DNA from: a candidate division WOR-3 bacterium
Lineage (GTDB): Bacteria; Hydrothermota; 32-111
Direction: 5' to 3'
DNA: 64,000 nucleotides
Assembly (NCBI GenBank): GCA_039804105.1
Contig: JBDRZU010000001.1
Span: 1,218,602 to 1,282,601, forward strand
A program made the translations under genes and the position numbers. Shown piece by piece: positions 21,753-64,000 of the stretch (position 1 is its first letter; the number at the start of each line of letters is the position of its first letter). A model generated the notes under the pieces. That model searched no databases. It saw only the letters and a list, made by a program, of their open reading frames with translations, and had not been told where the DNA came from.

Positions 21753-21765
21753 TCCCCCAAGAGTC

Positions 21766-21838
<73 letters not shown>

Positions 21839-21859
21839 GGTCTGTTCGCCCATTAAAGT

Positions 21860-21902
<43 letters not shown>

Positions 21903-22242
21903 GTATCCATTGTGGGCGTATGAAATCTGAGGGTGTGCTGTCCCTAGTACGAAAGGACCGGGATGGGCAAACCTCCTGTGTACCAGTTGTCACGCCAGTG
22001 GCAGCGCTGGGTAGCAGTGTTTGTTCAGGATAACCGCTGAAAGCATCTAAGCGGGAAACCTACCCCAAGATAAGATTTCACTCCAGGTTTTCCTGGCGAA
22101 GGCTCCTGGGAGACTACCAGGTTGATAGGCTGCAAGTGTAAGTGCGGTAACGCATTCAGCTGAGCAGTACTAATAGGCCGAGAGTCTTAATCCTTAAGTT
22201 GTCTTTCTACAAATTCAAATGTCTTTAAATGTTATATAAATT

Positions 22243-24175: not shown

Positions 24176-24199
24176 GTCAAAAAGTCAAGCACCGTCCCC
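24176..24199 (+). repeat. Conserved intergenic motif, copy b (forward)
   Basis: GTCAAAAAGTCAAGCACCGTCCCC. Its reverse complement encodes the last residues (GDGA) and the TGA stop of the 24185-24769 minus-strand gene. Confidence 0.95.
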
Positions 24200-47861: not shown

Positions 47862-47970
47862 AGATTTTGCAAATTTTAATACCTTTTTTAATAAGATCTA
47901 AAAATTATTATTTTTTTGTATTATGAATATATCTTCTATCTTATTAATTTTTTATATGTTGCAAAAAAAA

Positions 47971-47994
47971 GTCAAAAAGTCAAGCACCGTCCCC
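47971..47994 (+). repeat. Conserved intergenic motif, copy c (forward)
   Basis: GTCAAAAAGTCAAGCACCGTCCCC, preceded by TTTTTTATATGTTGCAAAAAAAA. That upstream flank is shared with copy d. Confidence 0.95.
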
Positions 47995-48094
47995 AAATTT
48001 AAAAAAAATTTTATTGTAAAATTTTTTGATTATCCATTTTGCTCGATTTTTAATTATGTAGAGTTAATAATTGGTATGAAAAGAAATTTGTCAG

Positions 48095-48122
48095 TTGACT
48101 CAATTGAATAGCGAGTTATAAT
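48095..48122 (+). promoter_or_regulatory. sigma70-type promoter of the two-gene cassette (near-leaderless)
   Basis: TTGACT (48095-48100), 16-nt spacer, TATAAT (48117-48122). The ATG at 48132 is 9 nt after the -10 box and has no Shine-Dalgarno sequence. Confidence 0.55.
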
Positions 48123-48131
48123 ATTTAAATT

Positions 48132-48329
48132 ATGATAAAAAACAAAGAAAAATTCTTTAAATTTGAAAAAAAATTAATTAAAAAAACAAAATATAATGTA
48201 AAAAAAAATTTTGAAATTTTTGAAACACTAAAAAGATACTATATTTTATTAGGGAGAAAACAATCGAATAAAGTAAATAGCATTGAACCAAAAATCAGAA
48301 TCGCCAGAGTATTAAATGAAAAAAAATAA
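48132..48329 (+). CDS. Small basic hypothetical protein (possible partner of the downstream nucleotidyltransferase-fold protein)
   Basis: 65-aa ORF overlapping the next gene by 14 nt. Confidence 0.4.
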   Translation: MIKNKEKFFKFEKKLIKKTKYNVKKNFEIFETLKRYYILLGRKQSNKVNSIEPKIRIARVLNEKK

Positions 48330-48873
48330 AAATCTCCTCTCCAGAATTGGAAAAGCACTCGATAAATTCGGAATAGATTATATGGTTATTGGTGGACAAG
48401 CGGTATTGTTATATGGAGAACCTCGTTTTACAAGAGATATTGATATTGTTATAGGAATTACCCCATCAAAAAAAGAAAAAATATTTGATTTGGTTAAAGA
48501 ATTGAAATTAAAAATTATAGTAAAAAATCCAGAGAAGTTTATAAAAGAAACCTATGTTTTACCTTGTGAATCTTCTTTAGATGTTATGAGAGTTGATTTT
48601 ATTTTTTCAGATTCCGAGTTTGAAAAGAATGCTTTAAAAAGGGTAAGAGTAAAAAAAATTGATGATTGCAAAGTAAAATTTGCTTCTATTGAAGACATTA
48701 TAATTTTAAAAATAGTTGCTGGCAGAGAAAGGGATCTTGAAGATGTTTACAACATTTTGTTAAAAAATAAAACAGTTGATTACAATTATATTTATAAATC
48801 TTTGAAGTTTTTTGAAACTATATTAAATACAGATTTATCATCAATTTTTAAAAATATCGTCTCCCGTACTTAA
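48316..48873 (+). CDS. Nucleotidyltransferase-fold protein (minimal NTase-like)
   Basis: 185 aa. VIGGQAVLLYGEPRFTRDIDIVI resembles the G-x-A...G..R.T.D.D core of small NTase-fold families found in toxin-antitoxin-like pairs. Confidence 0.5.
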   Translation: MKKNKNLLSRIGKALDKFGIDYMVIGGQAVLLYGEPRFTRDIDIVIGITPSKKEKIFDLVKELKLKIIVKNPEKFIKETYVLPCESSLDVMRVDFIFSDSEFEKNALKRVRVKKIDDCKVKFASIEDIIILKIVAGRERDLEDVYNILLKNKTVDYNYIYKSLKFFETILNTDLSSIFKNIVSRT

Positions 48874-48967
48874 TACTCATAATTTTATATTTTCCTAAGA
48901 AATAATGAAGTATTTTTCTTTAATAAATTACATAAAAAAATTTATTTTTTTATATGTTGCAAAAAAA

Positions 48968-48990
48968 GTCAAAAAGTCAAGCACCGTCCC
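48968..48990 (+). repeat. Conserved intergenic motif, copy d (forward)
   Basis: GTCAAAAAGTCAAGCACCGTCCC followed by T, with the same upstream flank as copy c. Confidence 0.95.
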
Positions 48991-49011
48991 TAAAAATTTA
49001 ACAAGCACCTT

Positions 49012-49073
49012 TCCTGAAAATTTAAATAATCGGTAGGCGCAACCTTCAGGTTGCGCAAATTCTGTATGCTAAA
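49012..49073 (+). ncRNA. GC-rich nested stem-loop followed by a T-run (terminator or small structured RNA)
   Basis: The outer stem GGTAGGC (49012-49018) / GCCTACC (49060-49066) encloses the hairpin GCAACC-ttca-GGTTGC (49019-49034). ATTTTTTGTTTTTT follows. The element is conspicuous in AT-rich intergenic DNA. Confidence 0.35.
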
Positions 49074-49331
49074 GCCTGAGCCTACCATTTTTTGTTTTTT
49101 ATAGATTTTTACAAACAAGAATTCAAATCTAAAAAATTTCCAAATGTCATATTCTTCTTAGTGATTATGAATTATTATTGGTTAATTTTTTTAAGAAATA
49201 ATTGTTTTGAGTGATTTTAAATAAGAGTGAAGTGAAAACTGGTGAAAAAAAGAGTTATTTTTGTTAATAATGTGAAGTTAGAAGAGGAATTGAAGAATAA
49301 AAACTAGCAATAAAATATAGAGATAAGGGTA

Positions 49332-49360
49332 TTGACATAAAAGAAAGAAGTTGCTAATAT
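49332..49360 (+). promoter_or_regulatory. sigma70-type promoter of the 1258-aa LVIVD gene
   Basis: TTGACA (49332-49337), 17-nt spacer, TAATAT (49355-49360). This implies a purine-rich leader of about 130 nt. Confidence 0.5.
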
Positions 49361-49494
49361 AAATTTAAATAGTTGACATTAAATAGAAAGGGGAAATAGA
49401 AATAATAGAAGGGAAGAATTTTGGATAGTAGATATATAGAGAGAAGTGGAAAGATGGATAGAGAGAAAAAGGATAAAAATAAATGGGGGGTTAG

Positions 49495-52400
49495 ATGAAA
49501 AGAGTGGTGCTGTTTTTTGTTTTAATTTTTGTTGGAGTGATGATATTTGCAATTGAGAGTGGGAAACTGAATGGAGATTATTTGATGATGAGTGAGAGTG
49601 AAGATGAGGGCACATGGGGAGATATACCGAAGTGGGCAACAGATAGTTTGAATGTTAGGGGAATAGGAAGGGTACCATATTTTGGAGATGCTTATGATGT
49701 ATTTATTGTTGACACATTTGCGTATGTTTGTATGGGGAAAAACCTTGTAATACTCAATATTTCAAACAAAACAAACCCACAACTAATAGGTTATATTGAT
49801 TTGCCTAACACAGCAAATGGTGTCTATGTCTCAGGCAGTTATGCATATGTTGTTGATTATGATTATGGCTTACGAATAATCAACATAAGTAATCCTTCAA
49901 GTCCAACAGAAGTAGGCTATTATGATACACCTGGGTATGCATATGGTGTCTATGTCTCAGGCAGTTATGCATATGTTGCTGATTATGATTATGGCTTACG
50001 AATAATCAACATAAGTAATCCTTCAAGTCCAAAAGAAGTAGGATATTATGATACACCTGGGTATGCATATGGGGTTTATGTCTCAGGCAGTTATGCATAT
50101 GTTGCTGATGGAAGTTCTGGCTTACGAATAATTGACATAAGTAATCCTTCAAGTCCAACAGAAGTGGGCTATTATGATACACCTGGGATTGCATATGATG
50201 TCTATGTATCAGGTAGTTATGCATATGTTGCTGATGGAAGTTCTGGCTTACGAATAATTGACATAAGTAATCCTTCAAATCCAACAGAAGTGGGATATTA
50301 TGATACAGCTGGGGGTGCATATGGGGTTTATGTCTCAGGCAGTTATGCATATGTTGCTGATGAAGATTATGGCTTACGAATAATCAACATAGGAAACCCT
50401 TCAAGTCCAACAGAAGTGGGATATTATAATACACCTGGGGATGCATGGGATGTTTATGTATCAGGCAGTTATGCATATGTTGCTGATGAAGATTATGGCT
50501 TACGAATAATCAACATAAGTAATCCTTCAAGTCCAACACAAGTAGGATATTATGATACACCTGGGTGGGCATTAGGGGTTTATGTATCAGGCAGTTATGC
50601 ATATCTTGCTGATTGGGATTATGGCTTACGAATAATCAACATAAGTAACCCATCTAGTCCAACAGAAGTAGGATATTATAATACACCTGGGTATGCATGG
50701 GATGTTTATGTCTCAGGCAGTTATGCATATGTTGCTGATGAAGATTATGGCTTACGAATAATCAACATAAGTAATCCTTCAAGTCCAACAGAAGTAGGCT
50801 ATTATGATACACCTGGGTGGGCATTAGGGGTTTATGTATCAGGCAGTTATGCATATGTTGCTGATGAAGATTATGGCTTACGAATAATCAACATAAGTAA
50901 TCCTTCAAGTCCAACGAGTGTAGGCTATTATGATACACCAGGGTATGCATATGATGTTTATGTCTCAGGCAGTTATGCATATGTTGCTGATGATTATGAC
51001 TTACGAATAATTGATATAAGTAACCCTTCAAGTCCAACAGAAGTAGGCTATTATGATACACCTGGGTATGCATGTGGGGTCTATGTCTCAGGCAGTTATG
51101 CATATGTTGCTGATTATGATTATGGCTTACGAATAATCAATATAAGTAACCCAACAAGTCCAACAGAAGTAGGCTATTATGATACACCTGGGTATGCATG
51201 TGGGGTCTATGTCTCAGGCAGTTATGCATATGTTGCTGATGAAGATTATGGCTTACGAATAATCAATATAAGTAATCCAACAAATCCAACAGAAGTAGGA
51301 TATTATAATACACCTGGGAGTGCATTAGGGGTTTATGTATCAAACAGTTATATATATCTTGCTGATGGAAATAGTGGTTTTTACATTTTACAAAATTTGT
51401 TATTAGATACAATACCTCCTTCAGCATTTAACTTAATATCTCCAAGTGGTAATATAACAGATAATACCCCGACATATACATGGAATAAGTCGTATGATAC
51501 TAATTTTAAGGAATATAGGTTATATGTTAATGGAAGTTTAAAATCAACTACAACAGATACTACATATACAGAGCCAACACCGATATCAGATGGACAGTAT
51601 ATATGGTATGTAACGGCGGTTGATAGTGCAGGCAATGTAAGACAATCAAGCCAAGTTGATACATTCATACTTGATGTAACAAAACCACCAATACCAATAT
51701 TGGTAAGTCCTGGAAATAACAGCATAAGTTCCACTAACACAATCCATTTTACATGGAGGAGTGTTGTAGACAACTATAGTGGGATAAAGAGGTATGAATT
51801 GATGTATGATGAAGATTCATTGTTTGGAAGTCCAGTGATACAGAGCGTTACAGATACGACATATACAGCAGTGTTATCAGAGGGCAGGTACTATTGGAAA
51901 GTAAGGGCAGTAGATAATTTTGATAATGTAGGGGATTGGAGTTTGAGGTGGAGTTTTGAGTATGATGGGACAGCGCCTGTGGCACCTGTTTTGATAAGTC
52001 CGAAGTGGGGCGTGGAGGTAGAGGATTCGTTAGTGTTATTTGATTGGGGGGTATTGGTAAAGGGGATAACGATAGGTATTAAGGAAAGGGAAGTGGAGAA
52101 GGAGAAGGATGGGCTAAAGGGTACGAAGGTGTATTATGAGATAGAGGTGGATACGAGCAGGAGTTTTGGTAGTGTGCTATATAGAGACACTGTGGATGTA
52201 GATAGTGTAAGAGTGAAGATAGTGAGAGATGATGTATATTATTGGAGAGTGAGGGGTTACGATGAGGCGGGGAATGTTGGTAGTTGGGGGATTGATTCAT
52301 TTGAGTTAGATATAAAGATACCAGTATTGAGTTTGAGCAAAAAGGTATATGAATTTGGAGATTTGGACACAAACAGAGTGTATAATTGGAGAGATTTATA

Positions 52401-53271
52401 TATAAAAAATATTGGAGATGCGACATTAACAGTAGATTCAGTGAAATATAGTGATACTAAATTTTTTGCTGATACAACATACATATATCCTCTTACAATA
52501 AATCCTGGAGATAGTGTTAGATATGGGACAAAGGCATTTTCATTGGATACAGGAGTAGTAGAAGGTAACTTGAGGGTGTATACGAGTATATACAGTGTGA
52601 AAGCGGATACAGTGATATTGAGAGCGCATTTTGGGAAGCCATTGAGGATAGATTCAGCGATAGCATTTGATGGAAGTGTATATGGAGGTGGGATAGATGA
52701 AGATGATTATGTGGTGTTATATTTTAATCAATCTACGAATGGATATAATATAAGTTCATTAAACATAGACGATGTATTGAGATTATCGAATGGACACAAA
52801 TGGACAGATGGAATTGGTATGATTGATACAGCATATTGGGATCCATCGAAAACGACATTAATGGTACAACTAAGTACAACGATAACACCACCGACTATAA
52901 GTGTAGGAGATACAATATATCCTGACTCTATGAGTATAATAGGAACGTTGAACTCATTTAGATGTCATTATCCAATGGTGATAAGAGGGTCATTTGTATC
53001 GGGGTTAGAAGGGAAAGATATACTTGGAGTGAAGGGAGAGGAATACAAGACATATTTAGAGGTAAAACGAAATGAGATAATTTATAGTTTTAAGAATGAG
53101 GAGAATGAATTTGTGATATATGATATTTTAGGGAAGGTTATGTATAAAGAGAGATTTGTGAAGAGAGGATTACACAGATATAGTATAAAGAATATAGCAA
53201 CTGGGATATATTTTGTGAAGATGAGGGATAAAGACAAAGAGATAAACAAGAAGATAGTGATAATGAAGTGA
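49495..53271 (+). CDS. Giant secreted LVIVD-repeat beta-propeller protein with Ig-like modules and T9SS C-terminal sorting domain
   Basis: 1258 aa. Signal peptide, then about 14 LVIVD blades (consensus VYVSGSYAYVADxDYGLRIINISNPSSPTEVGYYDTPG). Three modules of about 90 aa follow (YYWKVRAVDNFDNVG type), then a C-terminal module shared with the 14001-16250 gene, and finally GIYFVKMRDKDKEINKKIVIMK. Confidence 0.85.
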   Translation: MKRVVLFFVLIFVGVMIFAIESGKLNGDYLMMSESEDEGTWGDIPKWATDSLNVRGIGRVPYFGDAYDVFIVDTFAYVCMGKNLVILNISNKTNPQLIGYIDLPNTANGVYVSGSYAYVVDYDYGLRIINISNPSSPTEVGYYDTPGYAYGVYVSGSYAYVADYDYGLRIINISNPSSPKEVGYYDTPGYAYGVYVSGSYAYVADGSSGLRIIDISNPSSPTEVGYYDTPGIAYDVYVSGSYAYVADGSSGLRIIDISNPSNPTEVGYYDTAGGAYGVYVSGSYAYVADEDYGLRIINIGNPSSPTEVGYYNTPGDAWDVYVSGSYAYVADEDYGLRIINISNPSSPTQVGYYDTPGWALGVYVSGSYAYLADWDYGLRIINISNPSSPTEVGYYNTPGYAWDVYVSGSYAYVADEDYGLRIINISNPSSPTEVGYYDTPGWALGVYVSGSYAYVADEDYGLRIINISNPSSPTSVGYYDTPGYAYDVYVSGSYAYVADDYDLRIIDISNPSSPTEVGYYDTPGYACGVYVSGSYAYVADYDYGLRIINISNPTSPTEVGYYDTPGYACGVYVSGSYAYVADEDYGLRIINISNPTNPTEVGYYNTPGSALGVYVSNSYIYLADGNSGFYILQNLLLDTIPPSAFNLISPSGNITDNTPTYTWNKSYDTNFKEYRLYVNGSLKSTTTDTTYTEPTPISDGQYIWYVTAVDSAGNVRQSSQVDTFILDVTKPPIPILVSPGNNSISSTNTIHFTWRSVVDNYSGIKRYELMYDEDSLFGSPVIQSVTDTTYTAVLSEGRYYWKVRAVDNFDNVGDWSLRWSFEYDGTAPVAPVLISPKWGVEVEDSLVLFDWGVLVKGITIGIKEREVEKEKDGLKGTKVYYEIEVDTSRSFGSVLYRDTVDVDSVRVKIVRDDVYYWRVRGYDEAGNVGSWGIDSFELDIKIPVLSLSKKVYEFGDLDTNRVYNWRDLYIKNIGDATLTVDSVKYSDTKFFADTTYIYPLTINPGDSVRYGTKAFSLDTGVVEGNLRVYTSIYSVKADTVILRAHFGKPLRIDSAIAFDGSVYGGGIDEDDYVVLYFNQSTNGYNISSLNIDDVLRLSNGHKWTDGIGMIDTAYWDPSKTTLMVQLSTTITPPTISVGDTIYPDSMSIIGTLNSFRCHYPMVIRGSFVSGLEGKDILGVKGEEYKTYLEVKRNEIIYSFKNEENEFVIYDILGKVMYKERFVKRGLHRYSIKNIATGIYFVKMRDKDKEINKKIVIMK
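49684..51395 (+). repeat. In-frame tandem repeat array, 132-bp period (one 129-bp unit), 13 near-identical units plus 1 degenerate unit
   Basis: Long identical DNA stretches recur every 132 bp, for example GGCAGTTATGCATATGTTGCTGAT and GGCTTACGAATAATCAACATAAGTAATCCTTCAAGTCCAACAGAAGT. Confidence 0.9.
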
Positions 53272-53280
53272 TAACAAGAG

Positions 53281-53307
53281 GGGTGTTAAAAACACCCCTT
53301 TTTTAAG
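53281..53307 (+). terminator. Rho-independent terminator of the LVIVD gene
   Basis: AGGGGTGT-taaaa-ACACCCCT followed by TTTTTT, 10 nt after the stop codon. Confidence 0.85.
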
Positions 53308-53379
53308 ATTTTTCTTTTGTTTCCTAAAAACTAAGACTCCTTTATTGATGAACAGAGTCAAATGTTCACATTCAAAAAA

Positions 53380-53403
53380 GTCAAAAAGTCAAGCACCGTC
53401 CCC
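53380..53403 (+). repeat. Conserved intergenic motif, copy e (forward)
   Basis: GTCAAAAAGTCAAGCACCGTCCCC preceded by an A6 tract. Confidence 0.95.
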
Positions 53404-53417
53404 AAATGAAAAAATGA

Positions 53418-53446
53418 TTGAAAATTTTTTAATTTTTTGGTAAAAT
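53418..53446 (+). promoter_or_regulatory. sigma70-type extended -10 promoter, candidate promoter of the defence operon
   Basis: TTGAAA (53418-53423), 17-nt spacer ending TGG, TAAAAT (53441-53446). Motif copy f would then lie in the 5' leader of about 190 nt. Confidence 0.45.
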
Positions 53447-53577
53447 CAAAAAAATTTTGATGAGGGTTGATGGGGAAAATTTTAAAAAAGTGTAGAAATT
53501 CCTTGTATTTAACAAATATTATTATTGAAATTCTTTTTTACTGTTTTTCAAAAAATTTGTTTCTATTTTTGAAAAAA

Positions 53578-53601
53578 GTCAAAAAGTCAAGCACCGTCCC
53601 C
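53578..53601 (+). repeat. Conserved intergenic motif, copy f (forward)
   Basis: GTCAAAAAGTCAAGCACCGTCCCC, ending 43 nt upstream of the ATG at 53645. Confidence 0.95.
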
Positions 53602-53644
53602 AAATTTAGTAACTTTTAAAATAAAGTGAGTTAGGAGAAGGAGT

Positions 53645-56600
53645 ATGAAAAATTTTATTACAAATAGTGGTGCGGAGAATCTCGAAAAAAGATTATCTGA
53701 ACTTATCATAAGCAGTGAGGAGTTAAAGTTTCTTGTTGGGTTTTTCTATTTTTCGGGATTGAAGGAACTTTATAATTCTCTTGTGAAAAATCAAAATGTA
53801 AATTTAAAAGTTCTTGTAGGACTCAATGTTGATAAGTTGAACGAAGAGATTATTGAATTTGCTGATCTTGAAGATAGGAAGGGATCTTGTTCTGGTGAAG
53901 AAATTTACAGTAAATTTCTGGTATCTTTGAAAAAGTCTATAAATAGTGAAAAGTTTGATAACAAAGAGTTTTATGAGCAGGTGAAATTTTTTATTGAACT
54001 TATAAAAAACGGAAATCTAAAGATCAGAAAAACAACAAAACCTAACCATTCAAAACTTTACATTTTTAAACTCAACAATTTACAGGTCGGAAGAAAAACT
54101 CTGTTTATTACTGGAAGCAGTAATCTGACAGGTTCTGGACTTTTAACACAGGAAGAGTTCAACATCGAAGTTTCTGATTATGGTTTCAAAGAGGCAGAAA
54201 AATACTTTGATGATTTATGGGATAAAGCGATTCCAATAACTGAAAATACTGTTAATAAAAATAGAATGTTAAAAATTCTTGAAAAAGAAACTTTTATAAA
54301 AGAGATAACACCTTTTGAAGCGTATCTTCTGGTTTTAAAATTCTATCTTGATTCATTTGAAATGAAGAATATTGGAAAATCTCTTGTTAGAATTATGGAA
54401 AAAAATAATTATACACCATACAAGTATCAACTTGATGCTATACAACAGGCAATTTCAATAATTGAAAAAAATAATGGTGTGATTCTTGCCGATGTTGTTG
54501 GTCTTGGAAAAAGTGTCATAGCATCTTTAATAGCAAGAGAACTCAACAAAAGGGGAGTTATAATCTGTCCACCTGCTCTTATGGGTGATAGTCGTTTGAA
54601 AAACACTGGCTGGTATATGTATAGGGAACAATTTGAACTATACGATTGGGATGTCTGGTCTATTGGAGATATTGAAAAACTTGAAAAATTTCTAAAAAAT
54701 AAACAGGATATAGAGGTTGTGATAATTGACGAAGCACACAGGTTTCGAAATCAGGATACGAAAGGATATGAGTGTTTAAAAAATATTTGCAGAGGGAGAA
54801 ATGTTATACTTTTAACTGCAACTCCTTTCAACAACAGACCTGAAGACATTTTATCACTTTTAAAACTTTTTGTTATTCCCAAAAAATCATCGATTACACT
54901 TGAAAACAATCTTGTTGAAAGATTCAGAAAATTCAAAAGTGTTTTTGAGGATCTTGCTTTGATAAAGAAAAATTATAAATCAACAGATAATAAAAAAAGA
55001 AAGAAAGCACTTGATACCTATAAATCACTTTTCGGGAAAGAGTTTTCAGGTGAAGAATCATTAAAAGATGTTAAAAAGCGTGCTCAATACCTTTCAAAAC
55101 AGATTAGAGATGTTATTGAACCAGTTGTGATAAGAAGGAATAGGTTGGATTTACAAAATAATCCATTATATAAAGATGAGATAAAACACCTTTCAAAAGT
55201 TGCTGATCCACAGGAATGGTTTTATGAGTTAACAAAAGAACAATCTGAATTTTACGATTCAATAGTTGAACATTATTTTGCTGATCCTGATGATGGTGGA
55301 GAGTTTAAAGGAGCGATATATAGACCTTTTGAATACGAAAAGGGAAAAGCAACAATAAAAGAACTCGAAAAGTTGTCTGATAAAGAAAATTTTGAATATA
55401 ACCAGCAAAAGAACCTGTGTGATTTTATGAGAAGATTGCTTGTTAAAAGGTTTGAAAGTTCGTTTGGTTCATTTGAACAGAGTTTGAAAAATTTTAAAGA
55501 GACAACCGAGACAGTTAAAAGTTTTATTGATAAAACTGGAAAATATATTCTTGATAGGGATTTGCTTGAACGGATTTATGAGATGGATATAGAAGATATA
55601 GAGGAGAGATTGAAAGAGTATGCTGAAACTATGAAAAGAAAGAATTATCCAAAATATTATAAGGTCTATGATATTAACAAGTTTCAAGATAAAGAAAAAT
55701 TTCTTGCAGATATAGATAACGATTTAAAAATCTTTGATGAGATACTTTCAAAACTGAAAAAGTTGAAACTTACAGAAAACTTTGATCCCAAAACGAAATG
55801 CCTCATCGAAAATTTAAAAAAACAGTTAAAAAAAGATGAAAAAAGAAAAATTGTAATTTTCTCAGAATATGTTGATACAGTAAAATATTTGCAACCAGCA
55901 CTTGAAAAAGTTTTTAAAGGAAGAGTTCTTTCTGTTCCGGGATTGTTGAATCAGACAAAGGAACATGAAATTTACGCAAACTTTGATGCATCGTTTGAAA
56001 AACAGAAAGATGATTATGATATTTTGTTAACATCTGATAAACTTTCTGAGGGGTTTAATCTCAATAGAGCAGGAATGATTATCAACTATGATATACCATG
56101 GAATCCTGTGAGAGTTATTCAAAGGGTTGGAAGAATCAATCGTATAAGTAAAAAAGTGTTTGATGAACTTTATATCGTGAACTTCTTTCCAACAGAAACT
56201 GGAGCAGACATTGTTAAATCAAGAGAGATCGCATCACATAAAATGTTTTTGATACACAACACCCTTGGAGAGGACTCAAAGATTTTTGATATTGATGAAA
56301 CACCTCAACCGTCAAAACTTTATGATAAGATAAATCAGAATCCTGAAAATATTGAACACGAAAGTTTTTATACAAAAGTTTTAAAAGAATTTTCTGAAAT
56401 CAAAAACAAATATCCTGAACTTCTTGAATCATTAAAAGATTTTCCAACAAGAGTCAAAGTTGCGAAAAAAGCGAAAGAGGATGAATTGATAGTTGTGATA
56501 AAAAAGGGAAGATTGTTTATAAATTCAATCAAAGATTTTGAAAATCCTGAACAGATGACTTTTGAAGAGGCATTTGAAAAGATCAAGTGTTCTCCAAATG

Positions 56601-57001
56601 AAAAATCGATTGAACTCAGTGAAAAATTTTGGGAAAAATACGATAAGATAAAAAATTTTAAAGAAACAGAAAAACCACTGCCAGAAAAAAGCAATGAACA
56701 GCAAGCGATAAATGTGTTAAAAAAACTAAAATCAAATCAAAATGACAAAATACTTGAATATCATAGTTTTATAAAAATGTTGCTTGAAGATATTGTTGAC
56801 TATGGAACATTATCATCTTACACCTTACGCAGAATAGCGAACCTTGAAACTGATGAGTCAAAAATCGAAAAGACGATAGAAGAATTGAAAAAACTCAAAG
56901 ATGAACTTGGAGAAAATTATCTTGAATATGAAAAGAAAAAGTATATTGAAGAGAGTAAAGAAATAATTGTTGCGATAGAAAATAGAAAAATAACAACCTA
57001 A
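53645..57001 (+). CDS. PLD-family (HKD) nuclease domain fused to an SNF2-family helicase/translocase
   Basis: 1118 aa. The N-terminal PLD motif is NHSKLYIF...ITGSSNLT. SNF2 motifs: I ADVVGLGKSVIA, II VIIDEAHRFRN, III LLTATPFNN, VI QRVGRINRIS. RBS AGGAGAAGGAG. Confidence 0.85.
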   Translation: MKNFITNSGAENLEKRLSELIISSEELKFLVGFFYFSGLKELYNSLVKNQNVNLKVLVGLNVDKLNEEIIEFADLEDRKGSCSGEEIYSKFLVSLKKSINSEKFDNKEFYEQVKFFIELIKNGNLKIRKTTKPNHSKLYIFKLNNLQVGRKTLFITGSSNLTGSGLLTQEEFNIEVSDYGFKEAEKYFDDLWDKAIPITENTVNKNRMLKILEKETFIKEITPFEAYLLVLKFYLDSFEMKNIGKSLVRIMEKNNYTPYKYQLDAIQQAISIIEKNNGVILADVVGLGKSVIASLIARELNKRGVIICPPALMGDSRLKNTGWYMYREQFELYDWDVWSIGDIEKLEKFLKNKQDIEVVIIDEAHRFRNQDTKGYECLKNICRGRNVILLTATPFNNRPEDILSLLKLFVIPKKSSITLENNLVERFRKFKSVFEDLALIKKNYKSTDNKKRKKALDTYKSLFGKEFSGEESLKDVKKRAQYLSKQIRDVIEPVVIRRNRLDLQNNPLYKDEIKHLSKVADPQEWFYELTKEQSEFYDSIVEHYFADPDDGGEFKGAIYRPFEYEKGKATIKELEKLSDKENFEYNQQKNLCDFMRRLLVKRFESSFGSFEQSLKNFKETTETVKSFIDKTGKYILDRDLLERIYEMDIEDIEERLKEYAETMKRKNYPKYYKVYDINKFQDKEKFLADIDNDLKIFDEILSKLKKLKLTENFDPKTKCLIENLKKQLKKDEKRKIVIFSEYVDTVKYLQPALEKVFKGRVLSVPGLLNQTKEHEIYANFDASFEKQKDDYDILLTSDKLSEGFNLNRAGMIINYDIPWNPVRVIQRVGRINRISKKVFDELYIVNFFPTETGADIVKSREIASHKMFLIHNTLGEDSKIFDIDETPQPSKLYDKINQNPENIEHESFYTKVLKEFSEIKNKYPELLESLKDFPTRVKVAKKAKEDELIVVIKKGRLFINSIKDFENPEQMTFEEAFEKIKCSPNEKSIELSEKFWEKYDKIKNFKETEKPLPEKSNEQQAINVLKKLKSNQNDKILEYHSFIKMLLEDIVDYGTLSSYTLRRIANLETDESKIEKTIEELKKLKDELGENYLEYEKKKYIEESKEIIVAIENRKITT

Positions 57002-57095
57002 AAATGAAAAGTGTGATTTATTAAACTTTGAGGTGTTAATTTTTACACTTCAAAAAATTTTGATGGGAAGGTAAAAAATTAAAAAAGGAATATAA

Positions 57096-60000
57096 ATGGG
57101 AGAAAAAGAAATTTTAAAAAAGATAATAGAAGATTTTGACCTTGAAAAGTTTGAAACATTTTTTCGCAGAAAAAATGATAGATTAAGATTTGATAGAGAA
57201 ACTTTAAGCAATTATGGTAATCAAAATTTTACTGATGGATTGAAATTTGCTGAAGGTGAACTTGATGATGGAGAGTTTATCGTTTGTGCCTATAAAATCC
57301 AAAAGAACCTATCAGAAAGAAGTAGTAAAAAAGAGCAGTATGAAATCGGTAAAAAGATATTAAAAAATTATCAGAAGGATGCTGGAATATTCATTTTTTA
57401 TGATAAAGAAAAAAATTTCAGATTCAGTTTAATCTATCCGATTTATTATGGAAGAAAAAGAGATTGGAGTAATTTTAAGAGATTCACTTATTTTGTAAGT
57501 AAACAGGAAACAAACAAAACATTTTTAACACAAATAGGTGAAGGTGATTTTTCAAGTATTGAAAAGATTAAATATGCGTTTTCAGTTGAAAAAGTTACAA
57601 AAGAATTTTATCAGGAAATTGCTTATTGGTATTTCTGGGCTTTGAAAGAATCAAAGTTTCCCGAAGATGCTGAAATTGAAAAAAATGGAAGAAACATAGC
57701 GCTTATCCGTCTTATTACACGATTGATTTTTATCTGGTTTATGAGACAGAAGGGAATAATCAAAAGGGAACTTTTTGATAAAAAGTTTTTAGAAACAATT
57801 TTAAAAGATTTCTCTCCAGAAGAAAGCACATTTTATCCTGCAATCCTTCAAAATCTCTTTTTTGCAACATTGAACACTCCAGTTGAGGATCGAAAATTCC
57901 GCAGAGAGGAAAGACATAAAGGATATTTGAATAAGGATTATATGAACCATTCTTATTATAGACATCATTCGCTTTTTAAAGATTCAGACAAAATGATAGA
58001 ACTTTTTAATGATATTCCATTTTTAAATGGAGGACTTTTTGAATGTCTTGATAAAAGAAAGGATGATGAATCAAACGATACAGGAAAAGAGATAAGAATA
58101 GATGGATTTTCAGATAATCCCAAAAAACAGCCCATTGTTCCAAACTTTTTATTCTTCTCAGATGAAAAAGAGGTTGATTTGAATAAGGACTTTGGAACAA
58201 AAGATAAAAGATACAAAGTAAGAGGAATAATCAATATTTTAAATTCCTACAATTTTACTATAGATGAGAATACTCCAATTGATGAGGAAGTCGCACTTGA
58301 CCCTGAACTTTTAGGTAGAGTGTTTGAAAATCTACTTGCAAGTTATAACCCTGAAACTTCAACAACAGCAAGAAAAGCAACAGGAAGTTATTACACTCCT
58401 CGTGAAATTGTTGATTTTATGGTGAAAGAGTCGTTGAAAGAGTATTTTAAAACAAAGATTGAAAATATTGATGAGGAAAAACTTGAAAAAGTTTTTCAAT
58501 ACGATGATTCTGAAAATCCTTTTGATGAGAAAACAACCAAAGAACTTATAAATGCAATAAATAACCTAAAACTTCTTGATCCTGCTGTTGGATCAGGAGC
58601 ATTTCCGATGGGTGCTTTACACCAACTTGTGAATATTTTACATAAGTTGGATCCCCATAATAAAAGATGGAAAGAGGAACAAATAAAAGCGGTTGATTAT
58701 ATAACAGATCCAAAAATAAAGCAGGAAATGATTAATAAAATTGAAGAAAATTTTTCTCTGAACGAACTTGATTATGGAAGGAAACTTTATCTCATACAGA
58801 ATTGTATTTATGGAGTTGATATACAGCCGATTGCAATACAGATAGCAAAGTTAAGATGCTTTATCTCACTTCTTGTTGATGAGAATGTTGACAAAAACAA
58901 AAAAAATTTTGGTATAGAGCCACTTCCTAACCTTGAAACAAAGTTTGTGGTAACAGATAGTTTAAAAAAATTAAAAGTGGAAACAGTTCTTAGATCAAAC
59001 GATATAGTGCAAACAGAAATAGATCTTACAGAGATAAGGAACCGATATTTTATTTCATCAGATATAAGAGAAAAAAATAAACTCAAAAAGAAGGATAGTG
59101 AATTAAGGAAAAAACTTGCAGAAAATTTTTTGAAATTTGGTAATTTATCGAAAACTGATTCAGAAAAAATTGCCTCATGGAATCCATACAATACAGATAA
59201 ACCTGCAGACTGGTTTGATCCTGAATTTATGTTTGGAATAAGAGATGGTTTTGATATTGTTATTGGAAATCCTCCTTACATTCAATTACAAAAGGATAGT
59301 GGAAAACTTGCTGAAGAATATCAAAGTTATAAATATGAAACTTTTGCACGGACTGGAGATATTTATACTTTGTTTTATGAAAGAGGAATTGATTTACTAC
59401 AAGACAATGGATTGCTCTGTTATATAACTTCAAACAAATGGATGAGATCTGGCTATGGAGAAAAATTGAGATGCTATTTCACTCAGTATAATCCACTTCT
59501 TCTTATTGATTTGGGACCAGGAGTTTTTGAACATGCGACTGTTGATACAAACATTTTACTTTTACAGAAAAAAGAAAGCAAAAGGTATGATTATAAATTG
59601 AAGGGACTAATACTTCAAAAAACTGATAAACTATCGATAGAACAACAAATTAAAGAAAACAGCACAAAGATTAAAAAACTAACAAAAGAAGCGTGGTTTA
59701 TTGGATCAAGTGCAGAGCAAAAGTTAAAAGAAAAAATTGAACATATTGGAAAACCTTTAAAATTATGGGATGTGAAAATTTATTATGGCATCAAGACAGG
59801 GCTCAATGAAGCGTTTATTATTACAACTGAAAAGAGAGAAGAGATCCTTGCAAATTGTAAAGATAAAGAAGAAAGAAAACGAACCGAAGCGATAATAAAA
59901 CCGATTCTCCGTGGTAGAGACATCAGTCGCTACTACTACGAATGGGCAGGATTGTGGGTGATAGGAACTTTTCCTGCTTTGAATTTGAATATAGAAGAAT

Positions 60001-60575
60001 ATCCTGCTTTAAAAAAATATTTTCTTGATAATTTTGATATTCGTCGATTAGAACAATCAGGGAAAAAATATCCTCATCTTGGTATTGATGCTCGTAAAAA
60101 AACAGATAATAAATGGTTTGAAACGCAAGATCAAATTGCCTACTACCCTGAGTTCGAAAAAGAGAAGGTGGTGTGGACTGCTGTAAACAGTAAATATAGC
60201 TTTACCATATTACCCCCTGGATTTTATTTTAATAATTCTATTTTTATGATAACTGGTTGTAACGCTAAATTATGGTGTGCAATATTTAATTCAAAACTTA
60301 TTAGAAAATATATGCAATTTTTATTTGCCTCTGAAGAAAATTATACCTACGCTTCAAAAGAAAATGTAGAAAAAATCCCTATTCCCATTATAACTAATGA
60401 AAATGAAAGTATTGTTAAACAGATAGAAAATTTAGTAGATAAAATTCTTATCGCTAAAAAACAATGTCCTCAAAGTGATATAAAAAGTGATATAAAAAAT
60501 TGGGAGCAAGAAATAGATCAGCTTGTGTATAAATTATATAAATTAAACAAGGAGGAAATATGTTTAGTAAATTAA
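57096..60575 (+). CDS. Eco57I/type IIG-like gamma-class N6-adenine DNA methyltransferase with C-terminal target-recognition domain
   Basis: 1159 aa. Motif I is LDPAVGSGAFP, followed by motif IV VIGNPPYIQ (gamma order). The C-terminal region is TaqI/Eco57I-like (YYGIKTGLNEAFII). I could not identify a nuclease motif in the N-terminal region of about 250 aa. Confidence 0.8.
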   Translation: MGEKEILKKIIEDFDLEKFETFFRRKNDRLRFDRETLSNYGNQNFTDGLKFAEGELDDGEFIVCAYKIQKNLSERSSKKEQYEIGKKILKNYQKDAGIFIFYDKEKNFRFSLIYPIYYGRKRDWSNFKRFTYFVSKQETNKTFLTQIGEGDFSSIEKIKYAFSVEKVTKEFYQEIAYWYFWALKESKFPEDAEIEKNGRNIALIRLITRLIFIWFMRQKGIIKRELFDKKFLETILKDFSPEESTFYPAILQNLFFATLNTPVEDRKFRREERHKGYLNKDYMNHSYYRHHSLFKDSDKMIELFNDIPFLNGGLFECLDKRKDDESNDTGKEIRIDGFSDNPKKQPIVPNFLFFSDEKEVDLNKDFGTKDKRYKVRGIINILNSYNFTIDENTPIDEEVALDPELLGRVFENLLASYNPETSTTARKATGSYYTPREIVDFMVKESLKEYFKTKIENIDEEKLEKVFQYDDSENPFDEKTTKELINAINNLKLLDPAVGSGAFPMGALHQLVNILHKLDPHNKRWKEEQIKAVDYITDPKIKQEMINKIEENFSLNELDYGRKLYLIQNCIYGVDIQPIAIQIAKLRCFISLLVDENVDKNKKNFGIEPLPNLETKFVVTDSLKKLKVETVLRSNDIVQTEIDLTEIRNRYFISSDIREKNKLKKKDSELRKKLAENFLKFGNLSKTDSEKIASWNPYNTDKPADWFDPEFMFGIRDGFDIVIGNPPYIQLQKDSGKLAEEYQSYKYETFARTGDIYTLFYERGIDLLQDNGLLCYITSNKWMRSGYGEKLRCYFTQYNPLLLIDLGPGVFEHATVDTNILLLQKKESKRYDYKLKGLILQKTDKLSIEQQIKENSTKIKKLTKEAWFIGSSAEQKLKEKIEHIGKPLKLWDVKIYYGIKTGLNEAFIITTEKREEILANCKDKEERKRTEAIIKPILRGRDISRYYYEWAGLWVIGTFPALNLNIEEYPALKKYFLDNFDIRRLEQSGKKYPHLGIDARKKTDNKWFETQDQIAYYPEFEKEKVVWTAVNSKYSFTILPPGFYFNNSIFMITGCNAKLWCAIFNSKLIRKYMQFLFASEENYTYASKENVEKIPIPIITNENESIVKQIENLVDKILIAKKQCPQSDIKSDIKNWEQEIDQLVYKLYKLNKEEICLVN

Positions 60576-61069
60576 TTCAATCAATTTTAGTGCTAACTTC
60601 AATAGCACCTGTTTTGCTAACTTTTTGGTTCAAAAACTTTAGTAAAGATTGGAAACCATTTTCTGGTTTTATTTATTTATTTTTTTCATTTCTTTTGATT
60701 ATTTTGCTTGTTATAATAATTAAAATCGCAAAAAGCAAACTTGAAGTTAAAGAAATTTCTATCAATGAAATTTCTAATGCTGATAATGAAAGTGTTATAT
60801 TTATCTTTACATATCTTATTCCTTTATTAAATATAGATGAACCTTTGGTTTTATTTTTATTAGGTCTAACTTTTGTTATTGTATCAACAACTAATATTTA
60901 TCATTTTAATCCATTTCTTGGTTTGTTGGGTTATCATCAATATAAGATGAAATTACAAGAAGGAATGAGTTTTATTTTGATAACAAAAAAAACATTATAT
61001 AATACAAAACAAATAAAAAAAGTAGTACAATTAACCAATTATATTTTGTTAGAAAGGGAGGAATTATGA
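60560..61069 (+). CDS. Four-TM membrane protein, KwaA-like candidate
   Basis: 169 aa with four hydrophobic helices and a cytosolic tail of about 45 aa. The start overlaps the methyltransferase gene by 16 nt, and the end overlaps the next gene by 4 nt. Confidence 0.35.
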   Translation: MFSKLIQSILVLTSIAPVLLTFWFKNFSKDWKPFSGFIYLFFSFLLIILLVIIIKIAKSKLEVKEISINEISNADNESVIFIFTYLIPLLNIDEPLVLFLLGLTFVIVSTTNIYHFNPFLGLLGYHQYKMKLQEGMSFILITKKTLYNTKQIKKVVQLTNYILLEREEL

Positions 61070-61917
61070 ATGTTTATGCAGTTTTAAGAGACTCTGATTC
61101 AAATGGTAGCTGCATTATTAAAAGTATTAGTTTAACCCAAAAGTTACAAAAAGAACTGACGGGTTACATTCCTTTTAAAAGTTATGAAGATGAAAACATA
61201 AAGCAAATTAGATTTTCAGGAGAGTATAAACCAGATGAACAAGAAGTACTTTATATTAACAAATTTTACAATCCTTTTAAAGAGTTTGACTCAATTACTG
61301 ATACATTAAATAAAAGTGATATTGATAATATTAAATTTTTAGCTTTTGTAGATAGTCAAAAAATTGCATATCAATCTTTTGACAGTAGAAAAATAATAAC
61401 ACCTGAAAAGTGGTTTTTAATATATTCCGATAATACCTATTCTAAAATAGATAAGAAAGGGTTAATAATAGATTCCAGAATCGATGCATTATATTTGAAA
61501 AAGGAAGAGAAATTATTATTTTTTTCTTATCGCAATGCAATAAAAATATTTGATTTAGGAAAATATTATCGAGAAGCAACCGAAGACGAGTTAAATTTGT
61601 TTACAAAAGAAGAAATTTTTATATTTAATGAAGGTTTTGATAAAAATCTATTAAGCTCAAAAATGCGAAAAAAAATTTTTATGATACAAAAAAATGAGAT
61701 CTTAACAAAAATTAAAAATAATTTTAACCAAGTAGTAAATTATGCTAAAAAATTAAACGTTGATGAAATGTTTGACAAAAACAATAAAAAAATCATTTTT
61801 CCAAAAGAAAAGAAAAATATAGAAAAATTATTAAATTTTTTGAATGAGGATTTATACGAATCTCCTATTAGTGGTTTAATATACGAGACAAATTCAAAAA
61901 AATTGGTAACTGAATAG
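61066..61917 (+). CDS. DUF4868-like protein, KwaB-like candidate
   Basis: 283 aa. Size, position after a 4-TM protein, and sequence features (FSGEYKPDEQEVLYI, KIFDLGKYYREATEDELNLF) fit my recollection of the DUF4868/KwaB family. Not verified by any search. Confidence 0.4.
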   Translation: MNVYAVLRDSDSNGSCIIKSISLTQKLQKELTGYIPFKSYEDENIKQIRFSGEYKPDEQEVLYINKFYNPFKEFDSITDTLNKSDIDNIKFLAFVDSQKIAYQSFDSRKIITPEKWFLIYSDNTYSKIDKKGLIIDSRIDALYLKKEEKLLFFSYRNAIKIFDLGKYYREATEDELNLFTKEEIFIFNEGFDKNLLSSKMRKKIFMIQKNEILTKIKNNFNQVVNYAKKLNVDEMFDKNNKKIIFPKEKKNIEKLLNFLNEDLYESPISGLIYETNSKKLVTE

Positions 61918-62094
61918 ATTTATTAATTGAACTTTTTTTAACTAAGAAACAACTTTTAACTTTACGATCTATACTTGATTTTATTGAAGTGATATTTTTA
62001 ATTAAAGTTGGCTTATGTTGTTAAAAATTGCTTTGTTGGTTTAGAAAAAAGGATAAAGTTGTTTAAAAGTATAAAGATAAAAAGTAAACTATTA

Positions 62095-62994
62095 TTAATT
62101 TTTAGTACTTGACAAAATATAGTAGATTGAACTTACTTGATTCACGTATGATTCATCTGGATTATATCCATAAAAAATTAATTCAATGTTGTTAAGATCG
62201 ATTTTTTTATATAGATCAATTAAAATTTTTAATCCTTCTTTTAAACTTTCTTCATCACTTAAAGGTTTAATCGATTTTACTTGCATAATACCAGTAGTTC
62301 TTGATTTTTTGCTAAAAAAGAAAAACTTATTTTCTAAAATTCTTATAAATTTTGGCCTATTAAAATTTTCATATATCATAATTGAGAGAATAATGTTTTT
62401 TAAGTTAGGATCTTCAATTTCATTTAAAATTTTAGAAAAATTTTTCTTTAATTTTTGTGCCATTTTGATGATGTAATTTTTTTTTACGTAATCATCCCTT
62501 TGGGAAGTAGAATAATTTTTGTAATTAAAAATACTATAAATATATAAAATTATCAATAACCATAATTCATTTGAAAGTGATTTAATATCAGGAATAATTA
62601 GGTTTTTATTTTTCAGAAGTTTAAAATATGTTATTAAAGAAAATAAAATTATTAAAATGTCGTTTAGTATTTCTTTTTTCCAATTCGTTAAGTAAACTCT
62701 ATCGAAAAAAAATTTATAAAAAATTCTTAATAGTATATAAAAAACAGAGACAAAATAAATGTTTTCTATTAAAAAATTAAAATTTAATACATAAAAAAAA
62801 GCAGATATTATAAACAAAAAAATTGAAGGACCTAAAATTTTATAGACAAAATTAAAAGCAGGAGAGTAAAATTGATCATTTTCAAAATTTAAAGGTTCAT
62901 AACCATAAAAAGAGGATTTTTTTCCAAAAAAATTTATAAAAAAGAACAATATAAAAGAAAAAATTAAATGAAAAACAATTTTAATAATTACCAT
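62095..62994 (-). CDS. Membrane protein of unknown function (N-terminal TM bundle, soluble C-terminal domain)
   Basis: 299 aa with 4-5 TM helices. The C-terminal IYENFNRP...TTGIMQV faintly resembles lytic-transglycosylase motifs, with low certainty. Confidence 0.4.
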   Translation of the reverse strand: MVIIKIVFHLIFSFILFFFINFFGKKSSFYGYEPLNFENDQFYSPAFNFVYKILGPSIFLFIISAFFYVLNFNFLIENIYFVSVFYILLRIFYKFFFDRVYLTNWKKEILNDILIILFSLITYFKLLKNKNLIIPDIKSLSNELWLLIILYIYSIFNYKNYSTSQRDDYVKKNYIIKMAQKLKKNFSKILNEIEDPNLKNIILSIMIYENFNRPKFIRILENKFFFFSKKSRTTGIMQVKSIKPLSDEESLKEGLKILIDLYKKIDLNNIELIFYGYNPDESYVNQVSSIYYILSSTKN

Positions 62995-63108
62995 ATTAAA
63001 AATTTTAATAGATTTTTTTTAAAGTTCAAGATACTGATTAAAAATATTATTATAAGGAAGGTTTTTGAAAAAATATGTGATATCTTTCATTTTAGTTGTT
63101 AACTTTCA

Positions 63109-63131
63109 GGGACGGTGCTTGACTTTTTGAC
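63109..63131 (-). repeat. Conserved intergenic motif, copy g (reverse orientation)
   Basis: Plus strand reads GGGACGGTGCTTGACTTTTTGAC, 114 nt upstream of the 62095-62994 minus-strand gene start. Confidence 0.95.
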
Positions 63132-63370
63132 ATTTTTGGGGTAATGCTGAAAAAATAATAACTTAAAGGAAATAGGAGATAACTGAAAATTATTGTTTTG
63201 TCAGATTAAAATATCTGACATGCTTTATGAAAAACTTTATCAATTATTTCAGAAACGAGAGGTATTTTTTTAGATTAATTTGTTTTGATTTATACTAAAA
63301 TAAATTTTTAAGAACAAAATTTTTTATTTTATTAATTGACAAAATAAAAATTCTAATTAAATTATCACTA

Positions 63371-63793
63371 ATGAATTTTATTAATTTAATTAAAATTCAA
63401 AAAAATAACATAGAAATCATTTTACCCCTTGTTTTTGAAAAAAATAAAATTGAATTAAAAGAGAAATTCCAATCTATCTTGGAAACAGAGAATTTTAATG
63501 TTTTTTGGATTAAAGAAATATTTAAAAACTACAGGGAATTAAAAGTTTTTTTAGAAGAAAAAAATTACAACTTTAAAACAGAAATAAGTATAAATTTTAA
63601 GAAAACAGAGTTTAAAAATAGAACTTATTTTGTAACAATATACAGGACAAGTTTGGTAGGTTTTTCTTCTTTTAATTTTGAAGGGTTTTTGTTAAATGTT
63701 GGAGAAAATTATGATATTGTTAAATGGCTTATAAAATGTAATAAACCTTTCAAAAGAAGGAGGGAGCAAAATGGTTTTTTCCAAAAGATGTAA
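63371..63793 (+). CDS. Hypothetical protein
   Basis: 140-aa ORF, no family recognised. The next gene's AGGAGGGAG RBS is embedded in its 3' end. Confidence 0.4.
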   Translation: MNFINLIKIQKNNIEIILPLVFEKNKIELKEKFQSILETENFNVFWIKEIFKNYRELKVFLEEKNYNFKTEISINFKKTEFKNRTYFVTIYRTSLVGFSSFNFEGFLLNVGENYDIVKWLIKCNKPFKRRREQNGFFQKM

Positions 63794-64000
63794 AAATTTA
63801 ATTGGTTTAAGAAACCTGGAATTAGAATTTAATGAAACAATCAGGAATAGAATTTATAAGCTAATGGAAAAATTTAATTTAAGTCTAGAAAGAGTTACAG
63901 AAAGTAATTATAATTATGTAATTTATTGTTTTGATGAATTAGTTGAAAATATTAAATACACTTATGGTATTATTGAAAATAATATTGATATAAAAAATAT
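63771..64000 (+). CDS. Partial CDS (3' end beyond window), AbiJ N-terminal-domain-like candidate
   Basis: Hand translation from the ATG at 63771, after AGGAGGGAG: MVFSKRCKNLIGLRNLELEFNETIRNRIYKLM.... The FSKR...(I)RNR(I/L) pattern resembles AbiJ-NTD-type abortive-infection N-termini. The frame is open to the window end. Confidence 0.3.
   Translation, partial: MVFSKRCKNLIGLRNLELEFNETIRNRIYKLMEKFNLSLERVTESNYNYVIYCFDELVENIKYTYGIIENNIDIKN

Follow-up and report, generated by a model that had tools for sequence, protein, structure and literature searches.

Introduction

Transposases of the RAYT and TIRYT types are common and usually present in single copy, and the repeats that accompany them have mostly been discussed as selfish miniature elements or as signals acting at the RNA level; to our knowledge, no role of these transposases is agreed upon. 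In the TIRtrons, as set out by Di Nocera, De Gregorio and Rocco 2013 (PMC3733652), a RAYT-like gene for a terminal inverted repeat (TIR)-associated tyrosine transposase (TIRYT) lies between long, nonpalindromic TIRs, which double as members of a dispersed family and in some cases begin with GGGGWSAS. Here we describe a repeat family of this kind in a stretch of 64,000 nucleotides (nt) from a candidate division WOR-3 bacterium (GenBank assembly GCA_039804105.1, contig JBDRZU010000001.1, positions 1,218,602 to 1,282,601 of the forward strand; hereafter the window), in which two same-strand repeat copies, c and d, flank a nucleotidyltransferase (NTase) gene pair. Our verdict is that the system is a variant of the known TIRYT/RAYT repeats, with the added point that its copies delimit exchangeable modules in a defense island.

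The likeness to TIRtrons is close. The gene is RAYT-like and encodes an IS200-type Y1 HUH transposase with the HUH motif and the catalytic tyrosine, long non-hairpin inverted repeats flank it, one of them overlapping its 3′ end, and the same TIR is dispersed as moderately abundant single copies, dimers, and clusters. The outer end of the repeat, GGGGACGG, fits the GGGGWSAS of PMC3733652 at 7 of 8 positions. The family differs in that it resides in WOR-3 and TA06, with near-identical cores in several other phyla, in that most copies are singles in same-strand arrays, and in that copies coincide with the gain, loss, and reordering of modules, of which we found no report in the consulted sections of PMC3733652.

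The REP/REPIN-RAYT systems (PMC3116915, PMC3337134, PMC5581495) likewise combine a single-copy Y1 transposase with inverted flanking copies of a short intergenic repeat that numbers in the tens; repeat and transposase co-vary between lineages, and inverted doublets occur. The repeat described here, however, has neither a 20-40-nt imperfect palindrome or hairpin nor an unpaired GTAG tag, the protein scores 59.7 bits against the NCBIfam REP_Tyr_transpos equivalog cut-off of 80, and the distribution is patchy and cross-phylum rather than strictly vertical. Insertion sequences (IS) of the IS200/IS605 family (IS608, ISDra2), which move by single-strand "peel and paste," belong to the same catalytic family (Pfam PF01797), and excision of a circle with insertion beside a fixed short sequence would yield the geometry seen here. 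Ends of the IS608/ISDra2 type, in contrast, are asymmetric with subterminal hairpins rather than inverted repeats, and these elements carry no cargo modules between repeated solo ends.

Integrons (IntI, attI, attC) are similar in that sites of one orientation separate single genes or small modules, including toxin-antitoxin-like and defense genes, that vary between close relatives. They differ in that here there is no IntI and no tyrosine recombinase in the island, the sites are identical in sequence and unstructured rather than attC-like imperfect palindromes, the modules have their own promoters, and sites are also scattered round the chromosome. The dRS3 repeats of Neisseria are CGTC-tagged palindromes without a dedicated transposase, and exchange at them is ascribed to transformation and homologous recombination. 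As with dRS3, intergenic mosaic elements, and "minimal mobile elements," short dispersed repeats here border interchangeable modules between conserved genes; dRS3 is also named in PMC3733652. Finally, the enclosed gene pair resembles AbiEii/DUF6036 two-gene modules in its NTase fold, its small overlapping upstream partner gene, and the defense contexts of its relatives, e.g., type III-B CRISPR loci. It differs from the AbiE type IV toxin-antitoxin systems in that the partner is a 65-amino-acid (aa) open reading frame (ORF) without a family match, not an AbiEi-type regulator, and in that the AbiEii match (28.5 bits, cut-off 22.5) is weaker than the DUF6036 match.

Results

Copy c, TTTTTTATATGTTGCAAAAAAAAGTCAAAAAGTCAAGCACCGTCCC, occupies window positions 47948 to 47993 on the plus strand and comprises a 22-nt extension, an A-run, and a 23-nt core, GTCAAAAAGTCAAGCACCGTCCC, at 47971 to 47993. 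Copy d, on the same strand at 48946 to 48990, has the same extension and a core at 48968 to 48990; it equals copy c minus one A (45 versus 46 nt). The core starts are 997 nt apart, and directly after the shared ...CCGTCCC the copies diverge, into CAAATTT at c and TAAAAATTT at d. The original prediction, made from the letters of the window, had described a similarity reaching beyond the core with a single A indel, this spacing, and this divergence, and a direct reading bears it out on each. A repeat search of the window also grouped c and d as a single family (D3). The prediction had named low-complexity chance as a possible source of the similarity; we reject it, since the core has seven exact matches in the window versus none in 100 shuffles, and the 5′ extension of c and d gave a local alignment score of 17.5 when the 780 copy pairs of the genome had a median of 7.5 and a 95th percentile of 12. 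The 22-nt extension is common to c and d only, but it is not unique in kind, because several other copy pairs have still longer common 5′ extensions. Copies c, d, e, and f carry a common sub-variant, AAAAAAGTCA, and this and the c/d extension point to a likely history of local copying.

The two copies belong to a much larger family than was first supposed. The source genome (1.81 Mb) contains 40 copies of the core, 38 of them exact, and the earlier framing of c and d understated this number. Aligned copies give the consensus ttacAAAAAATGTCAAAAAGTCAAGCACCGTCCCC(g/a)A and a repeat length of ∼30-37 nt; the flanks are otherwise unrelated, except in sub-families with more common 5′ sequence. All 40 copies are intergenic or clip the last codons of a gene, and the gene pairs around them are co-directional, divergent, or convergent. 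By inspection, the strands of the copies along the contig that holds the window (hereafter C1) show no obvious two-arm layout. An Rfam scan returned only 23S and 5S rRNA genes and a tRNA search returned nothing, so that the repeat matched neither, and the repeat had no match in viral contigs.

A single gene connects these copies to a transposase. At C1:1070311-1071225, ∼147 kb ahead of the window, an IS200-like Y1 (HUH) transposase gene of 305 aa is flanked by inverted repeat copies at C1:1070315 (minus strand) and C1:1071277 (plus strand), and the last residues of the ORF are encoded by the repeat itself, one reading frame of which encodes ...KKSSTVP and gives the transposase its C terminus. 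The protein matches Pfam Y1_Tnp (PF01797; E = 3.5e-12) and NCBIfam REP_Tyr_transpos (E = 2.9e-16), and by profile search it is the only Y1_Tnp gene in the genome. Its HUH motif (NHxH) and catalytic tyrosine (of YTLLNP) do not vary among nine orthologues. In a profile search against the PDB, the Escherichia coli RAYT structure 4ER8 (TnpA-REP) came first and ISDra2 TnpA next, both as weak matches (E ∼0.05); a single-sequence search of the PDB with the transposase returned nothing.

Comparison with other genomes (numbered G001, G002, etc.) shows that the repeat family is linked to, and co-varies with, this transposase. Orthologues in G002 and G003 (65-66% identity), G019, and G007 have repeat variants of their own at the corresponding flanking positions: GTCACACTGTCAAGCACCGTCCCC in G002 and G003, the G002 variant beginning GTCACACTGTC; GTCAAAATGTCAAACCCCGTCCCC in G019; and TTCAACCTCCGTCCC in G007. 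The congener G004 has neither a repeat copy nor a transposase homologue. At the position that matches copy c, G002 carries its own variant, and the repeat family thus evolves in concert with the transposase. Taken on sequence grounds, the repeat is the terminal inverted repeat of a single Y1 transposase gene, a TIRtron/TIRYT unit related to REP/RAYT.

We compared the copies with those of the closest relative, G001 (∼89% identity), by aligning its three large contigs to the source genome with blastn. G001 has 34-35 copies, nine of them same-strand copies in its array. In 13 copy pairs orthologous between the two genomes the core is identical at 299 of 299 positions, while the surrounding 100-120 nt are ∼82% identical; the core thus shows as strongly constrained and, to judge from these pairs, frozen between the species. 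The copies also lie at the edges of homology. At ∼10 of the 27 assessable copies, homology with G001 is lost 0-13 nt after GTCCCC. For six of the 40 copies, a long blastn high-scoring segment pair ends no more than 15 nt away, versus a mean of 0.8 for random intergenic sites, and none of 5,000 random sets reached six. Modules common to the islands of both genomes, namely M-391aa-M (90.6% identity), a pair of 188- and 135-aa genes, and a fragment of a 407-aa gene, differ in order, and the homology edges of these reordered modules are at repeats. In the cleanest case, direct copies at C1:261183 and C1:263692 of the source genome surround a 2.5-kb segment whose product is an LVIVD protein of 722 aa that carries a type IX secretion sorting domain, and at the corresponding place G001 (its contig C1:297030) has a single copy, the same flanks, and no insert.

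The part of the window that contains c and d is itself a variable island. It runs from window position 47869 to 64000 and beyond, spanning 24.4 kb (C1:1266463-1290916) between an 86-aa gene and a 256-aa membrane-protein gene, and carries ten repeat copies, c, d, e, and f on the plus strand and then six on the minus strand. Its genes comprise the NTase pair, an LVIVD protein, a restriction-modification/Kiwa operon, an AbiJ-like gene, a DUF2130 gene, and AAA_14-DUF4143 ATPases. Synteny with G002, G003, and G004 extends through the 86-aa gene, stops at window position 47868, ∼80 nt ahead of c, and resumes at the 256-aa gene (C1:1290917). In G004 the whole island is absent, with 51 nt between the same two genes. 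G002 and G003 have different islands there, of 10.9 and 6.5 kb, bordered on the left by a repeat or relic and on the right by a repeat, 3′ ends inward; the position that matches c, 64 nt after the 86-aa gene, holds a repeat copy in G002 and a truncated relic in G003. Copy c is the left-border repeat of the island, and on the right the core flank is collinear with G001 until 10 nt past the border repeat. Taken together, these alignments show the repeat copies to be sites of structural change, relatives differing in the presence, absence, and order of whole modules with breaks at repeats, and they place gene modules, all equipped with promoters of their own, between copies on the same strand. 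We infer that the NTase pair is one such exchangeable module.

Between c and d, as the original prediction had it, lies one compact unit. A sigma-70-type promoter match, TTGACT-16-TATAAT, at 48095 to 48122 (plus strand) agrees with the consensus at 11 of 12 positions, being a consensus match only, and ends 9 nt ahead of the ATG of the 65-aa ORF (48132 to 48329, plus strand). This ORF overlaps by 14 nt the start of the 185-aa NTase-fold ORF (48316 to 48873, plus strand), which is of the DUF6036/DUF2204/AbiEii type (Pfam DUF6036, E = 2.9e-10, with further matches to DUF2204 and AbiEii). A search for NTase homologues found 592, the top one 60% identical; in homologous metagenome modules a 69-73-aa ORF overlaps the NTase gene in like manner, and the two genes are kept together as a unit, in some cases inside type III-B CRISPR loci. 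Since small ORF and NTase are conserved as a unit, they look like a self-contained toxin-antitoxin-like or defense-like pair, of which the 65-aa ORF is probably the antitoxin-like partner gene. Diverged NTase paralogues with in-frame stops (31-34% identity) occur once in the source genome and once in G001, each ∼200 nt downstream of a repeat copy. Neither a close relative of the module nor a match to the c/d sub-family string was found in metagenome contigs, the best homologue being the one at 60% identity. In the metagenome loci L147-L150, the nearest NTase homologues and their small overlapping upstream ORF lie inside type III-B (Cmr) CRISPR-Cas loci, adjoining Csx1 genes.

Beyond these genomes, a scan in which one genome represented each species turned up the core in more than 110 contigs, from WOR-3, TA06, Stahlbacteria, Aminicenantes, Bipolaricaulota, Cloacimonadota, Elusimicrobia, and Thermodesulfovibrionales; isolated matches, e.g., in Mycolicibacterium, fit the handful expected by chance. 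Transposase homologues of 40-58% identity adjoin the repeat in other phyla. Among adjacent copy pairs in GTDB loci (110 matching stretches), 24 were arranged (−,+), none (+,−), and 10 were direct. Of the (−,+) pairs, some have a spacing of 25-242 nt, as in miniature elements, and the others bracket a transposase homologue at a distance of ∼940 nt. In other phyla, too, a single gene or a small unit of two genes lies between same-strand pairs.

The remaining copies of the window stand in varied contexts. Copy a (18275 to 18297, minus strand) lies 7 nt past the stop codon of a 662-aa gene and ∼210 nt ahead of a 23S rRNA gene and is conserved in G001 (contig C4). Copy b (24176 to 24198, plus strand), likewise conserved there (contig C20), overlaps the stop codon of the minus-strand gene 24185-24769, a codon given by the repeat's other strand (24185-24198), and lies 47 nt ahead of the start of the minus-strand gene 22939-24129. 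The repeat also creates spurious small ORFs in the window (47923-48111 and 48905-49036). Copies a and b are oriented outward, as at the ends of the transposase unit, and the 5.9 kb between them hold two protein genes besides the 23S and 5S rRNA genes; both copies are conserved in G001, and the arrangement may be a coincidence or composite-element-like. The 23S rRNA gene (18505-22194) measures 3,690 nt against 2,925 nt for the Rfam model and contains an ORF (20613-21185) for a LAGLIDADG homing endonuclease (Pfam E = 4.2e-20), and hence is probably intron-bearing; upstream of it the window contains no 16S gene.

Within the island, copy e (53380 to 53402, plus strand) is downstream of the 1,258-aa LVIVD/type IX secretion gene and copy f (53578 to 53600, plus strand) is 45 nt upstream of a four-gene defense operon. 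The 174 nt between them (53403-53577) contain no ORF and one promoter-like match, an interval that looks like an emptied or never-filled module slot. Copy g (63109 to 63131, minus strand) is the first of the six minus-strand copies, which reach C1:1290787, past the window end; G001 homology stops exactly at g. Beyond the window end the island contains two paralogous AAA_14-DUF4143 ATPase modules (C1:1285234-1286409 and C1:1289578-1290705; 87.6% nucleotide identity), each of which starts at a repeat copy. An AbiJ_NTD4/Abi_C gene and a DUF2130 gene are further members of the island. LVIVD proteins with a type IX secretion sorting domain recur as repeat-bounded modules of 1,258, 722, and 809 aa (window 49495-53271, C1:261268-263436, and C1:1286637-1289066), and ∼280 nt of the LVIVD-gene 3′ ends together with the repeat form a longer repeat at at least three loci.

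Some copies are themselves rearranged. At 48978 to 49025 on the plus strand, the 3′ half of the repeat plus flank is imperfectly duplicated in tandem (CAAGCACCGTCCCTAAAAATTTAA and then CAAGCACCTTTCCTGAAAATTTAA; repeat-search family D6). Tandem duplications of the repeat 3′ half with 9-11 nt of flank follow two copies, an imperfect one of 24 nt after d and a perfect one of 22 nt after the copy at C1:1067688; they could be the footprint of cut-and-repair or of slippage within the repeat. An inverted repeat doublet of ∼290 nt (C1:1386958-1387243) is present in several copies, and because contigs C1 and C2 both end inside it, this doublet accounts for the break in the assembly. In G001, the large contigs have no counterpart of C1:1018471-1290777, a stretch of 272 kb that includes the whole window and 21 of the 40 copies. 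Its equivalents there are 0.5-1-kb low-coverage contigs, each centered on a repeat copy. We considered these small contigs as recombinant junctions and rejected the idea, as they are orthologues of source-genome loci from the region missing in the assembly; the gap is probably an artifact of binning or reassembly of this metagenome-assembled genome. The small contigs were used for flank comparison only, not as a sign of population heterogeneity.

Discussion

The explanation we favor, and consider reasonably probable, is that c and d are two members of the end-repeat family of the Y1 transposase and that gene modules are exchanged by recombination at its copies. The NTase pair would have come in, or could depart, by a crossover between two repeat copies; a circle with one copy that recombined with a resident copy would leave direct repeats behind. 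The Y1 transposase is a possible catalyst, which would cut and rejoin single-stranded copies, and the alternative would be ordinary (RecA-type) homologous recombination over a run of 30-46 identical bases. Arguments for an active, repeat-specific process come from the exclusive (−,+) pairing, from the arrays of same-strand copies, and from the concerted evolution of repeat and transposase.

Several results weigh against this explanation or narrow it. The repeat forms no hairpin or stem on either strand (folding z-scores of 0.16 to 0.59), and although CGTC is present inside its CCGTCCC, no stem adjoins it. Characterized Y1 transposases recognize hairpins, so that catalysis by the present transposase is unsupported and the missing hairpin argues against a textbook IS608-like reaction. 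The protein falls under the REP_Tyr_transpos family cut-off, and its match to 4ER8 is weak. Thirteen of the 27 assessable copies are collinear with G001 on both sides, which implies that most copies are not active junctions on the time scale separating these genomes, and by a reading of the alignment most of the large insertions and deletions between the two have no repeat. The original prediction had proposed looking for an empty site. One was found at C1:261183/263692, where G001 has one copy and no insert, a difference that could be a deletion in G001 rather than an insertion in the source genome; for the NTase module, searches of assembled relatives and metagenome contigs found no empty site, no circular junction, and no second location.

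The main rival holds that the genes stay put while the repeats move. On this account, which we regard as rather unlikely, c and d are independent insertions of a miniature transposase-mobilized repeat into the intergenic spaces to the left and right of a resident NTase module, piled up in a tolerant island, and no cassette is mobile. REP/REPIN-type repeats are held to be nonautonomous mobile DNA (PMC3116915 and PMC3733652), and in other genomes the predominant form is a short inverted doublet of 73-290 nt resembling a miniature transposon; copies occupy every kind of intergenic space, convergent included, and the 13 copies that are stable on both sides also fit this account. Yet the locus at C1:261183/263692 differs from G001 by the 2.5 kb between the copies and not by a repeat, homology blocks stop at repeats at ∼10 loci, module order differs, and the common 22 nt of c and d and the c-f sub-variant fit local copying with a module better than independent arrivals. 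The account does not fit this indel, the block edges, or the extension common to c and d.

A second possibility is that the repeat serves host regulation in cis, as an operator, an activator site, or a promoter component ahead of accessory genes, and that c and d control two neighboring transcription units. Its core is frozen between species, TTGACT occurs on its reverse strand, a −35/−10 match often follows 20-100 nt downstream, and 26 of the 40 copies are oriented with the next gene. The other 14, however, are directed at the 3′ end of a gene convergent with them and in many cases overlap its stop codon or lie 7-34 nt from it; the spacing between repeat and next promoter match is variable, and thirty invariant bases far exceed what a regulator site needs. 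Inverted copies moreover flank the transposase gene and co-vary with it, and the patchy cross-phylum distribution follows the transposase. A simple promoter or operator was rejected on these orientations and gene-3′-end positions, and regulation in the broader sense strikes us as distinctly improbable.

The original prediction had read the direct repeats as the product of a site-specific cassette insertion or of the duplication of an att-like site. For the family, this survives in modified form: copies are module junctions elsewhere, as the 261-kb pair, the absence of the island from G004, and the reordering in G001 indicate. As a private duplicated attachment site of one integrase-driven cassette, integron-like or integrative and holding the NTase pair only, the reading is largely refuted by the copy number (40 genome-wide) and by the lack of an integrase; the genome has just two tyrosine recombinases (PF00589), far from the island at C1:656 kb and C1:1329 kb, and the repeat, in which an attC-like palindrome is missing, is the end of a Y1 transposase unit. 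What speaks for it, namely 45/46-nt direct repeats one A apart around a self-contained, promoter-equipped unit and array copies in a single orientation, leaves it in our view very improbable. We also rejected a known RNA family or tRNA fragment (the Rfam scan gave 23S and 5S rRNA only, and there was no tRNA gene), a hairpin or REP-like fold (neither strand folds), and an integron or Xer site (no nearby integrase, no dyad symmetry), and dropped a Tn3-type 38-bp inverted repeat, prompted by GGGG...TAAG, since the flanked gene is a Y1 transposase.

Returning to exchange at the end-repeats, a bolder form of it would have the single-copy Y1 transposase use the 30-37-nt end-repeat as a general recombination site, excising the DNA between same-strand copies as a circle and inserting it at another copy, all through cleavage and religation of single-stranded copies. 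This would be an integron-like capture system derived from a domesticated IS200-type enzyme, which would assemble islands of defense and surface-protein genes in WOR-3 and the other repeat-bearing phyla; we put it forward tentatively and consider it rather unlikely.

For the window, the family accounts for seven otherwise puzzling motif copies. The repeat core is completely frozen between species ∼11% apart, and yet the same repeats mark the exact edges of module gain and loss, the modules at these edges including a toxin-antitoxin-like pair, restriction-modification and Kiwa genes, an Abi-type gene, and secreted LVIVD proteins. If host recombination does the joining, the case still shows a 30-base repeat organizing a defense island in a poorly known phylum. 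If it is true that the enzyme does the joining, this would be a second route, beside integrons, to cassette arrays, and it would give domesticated transposases a function.

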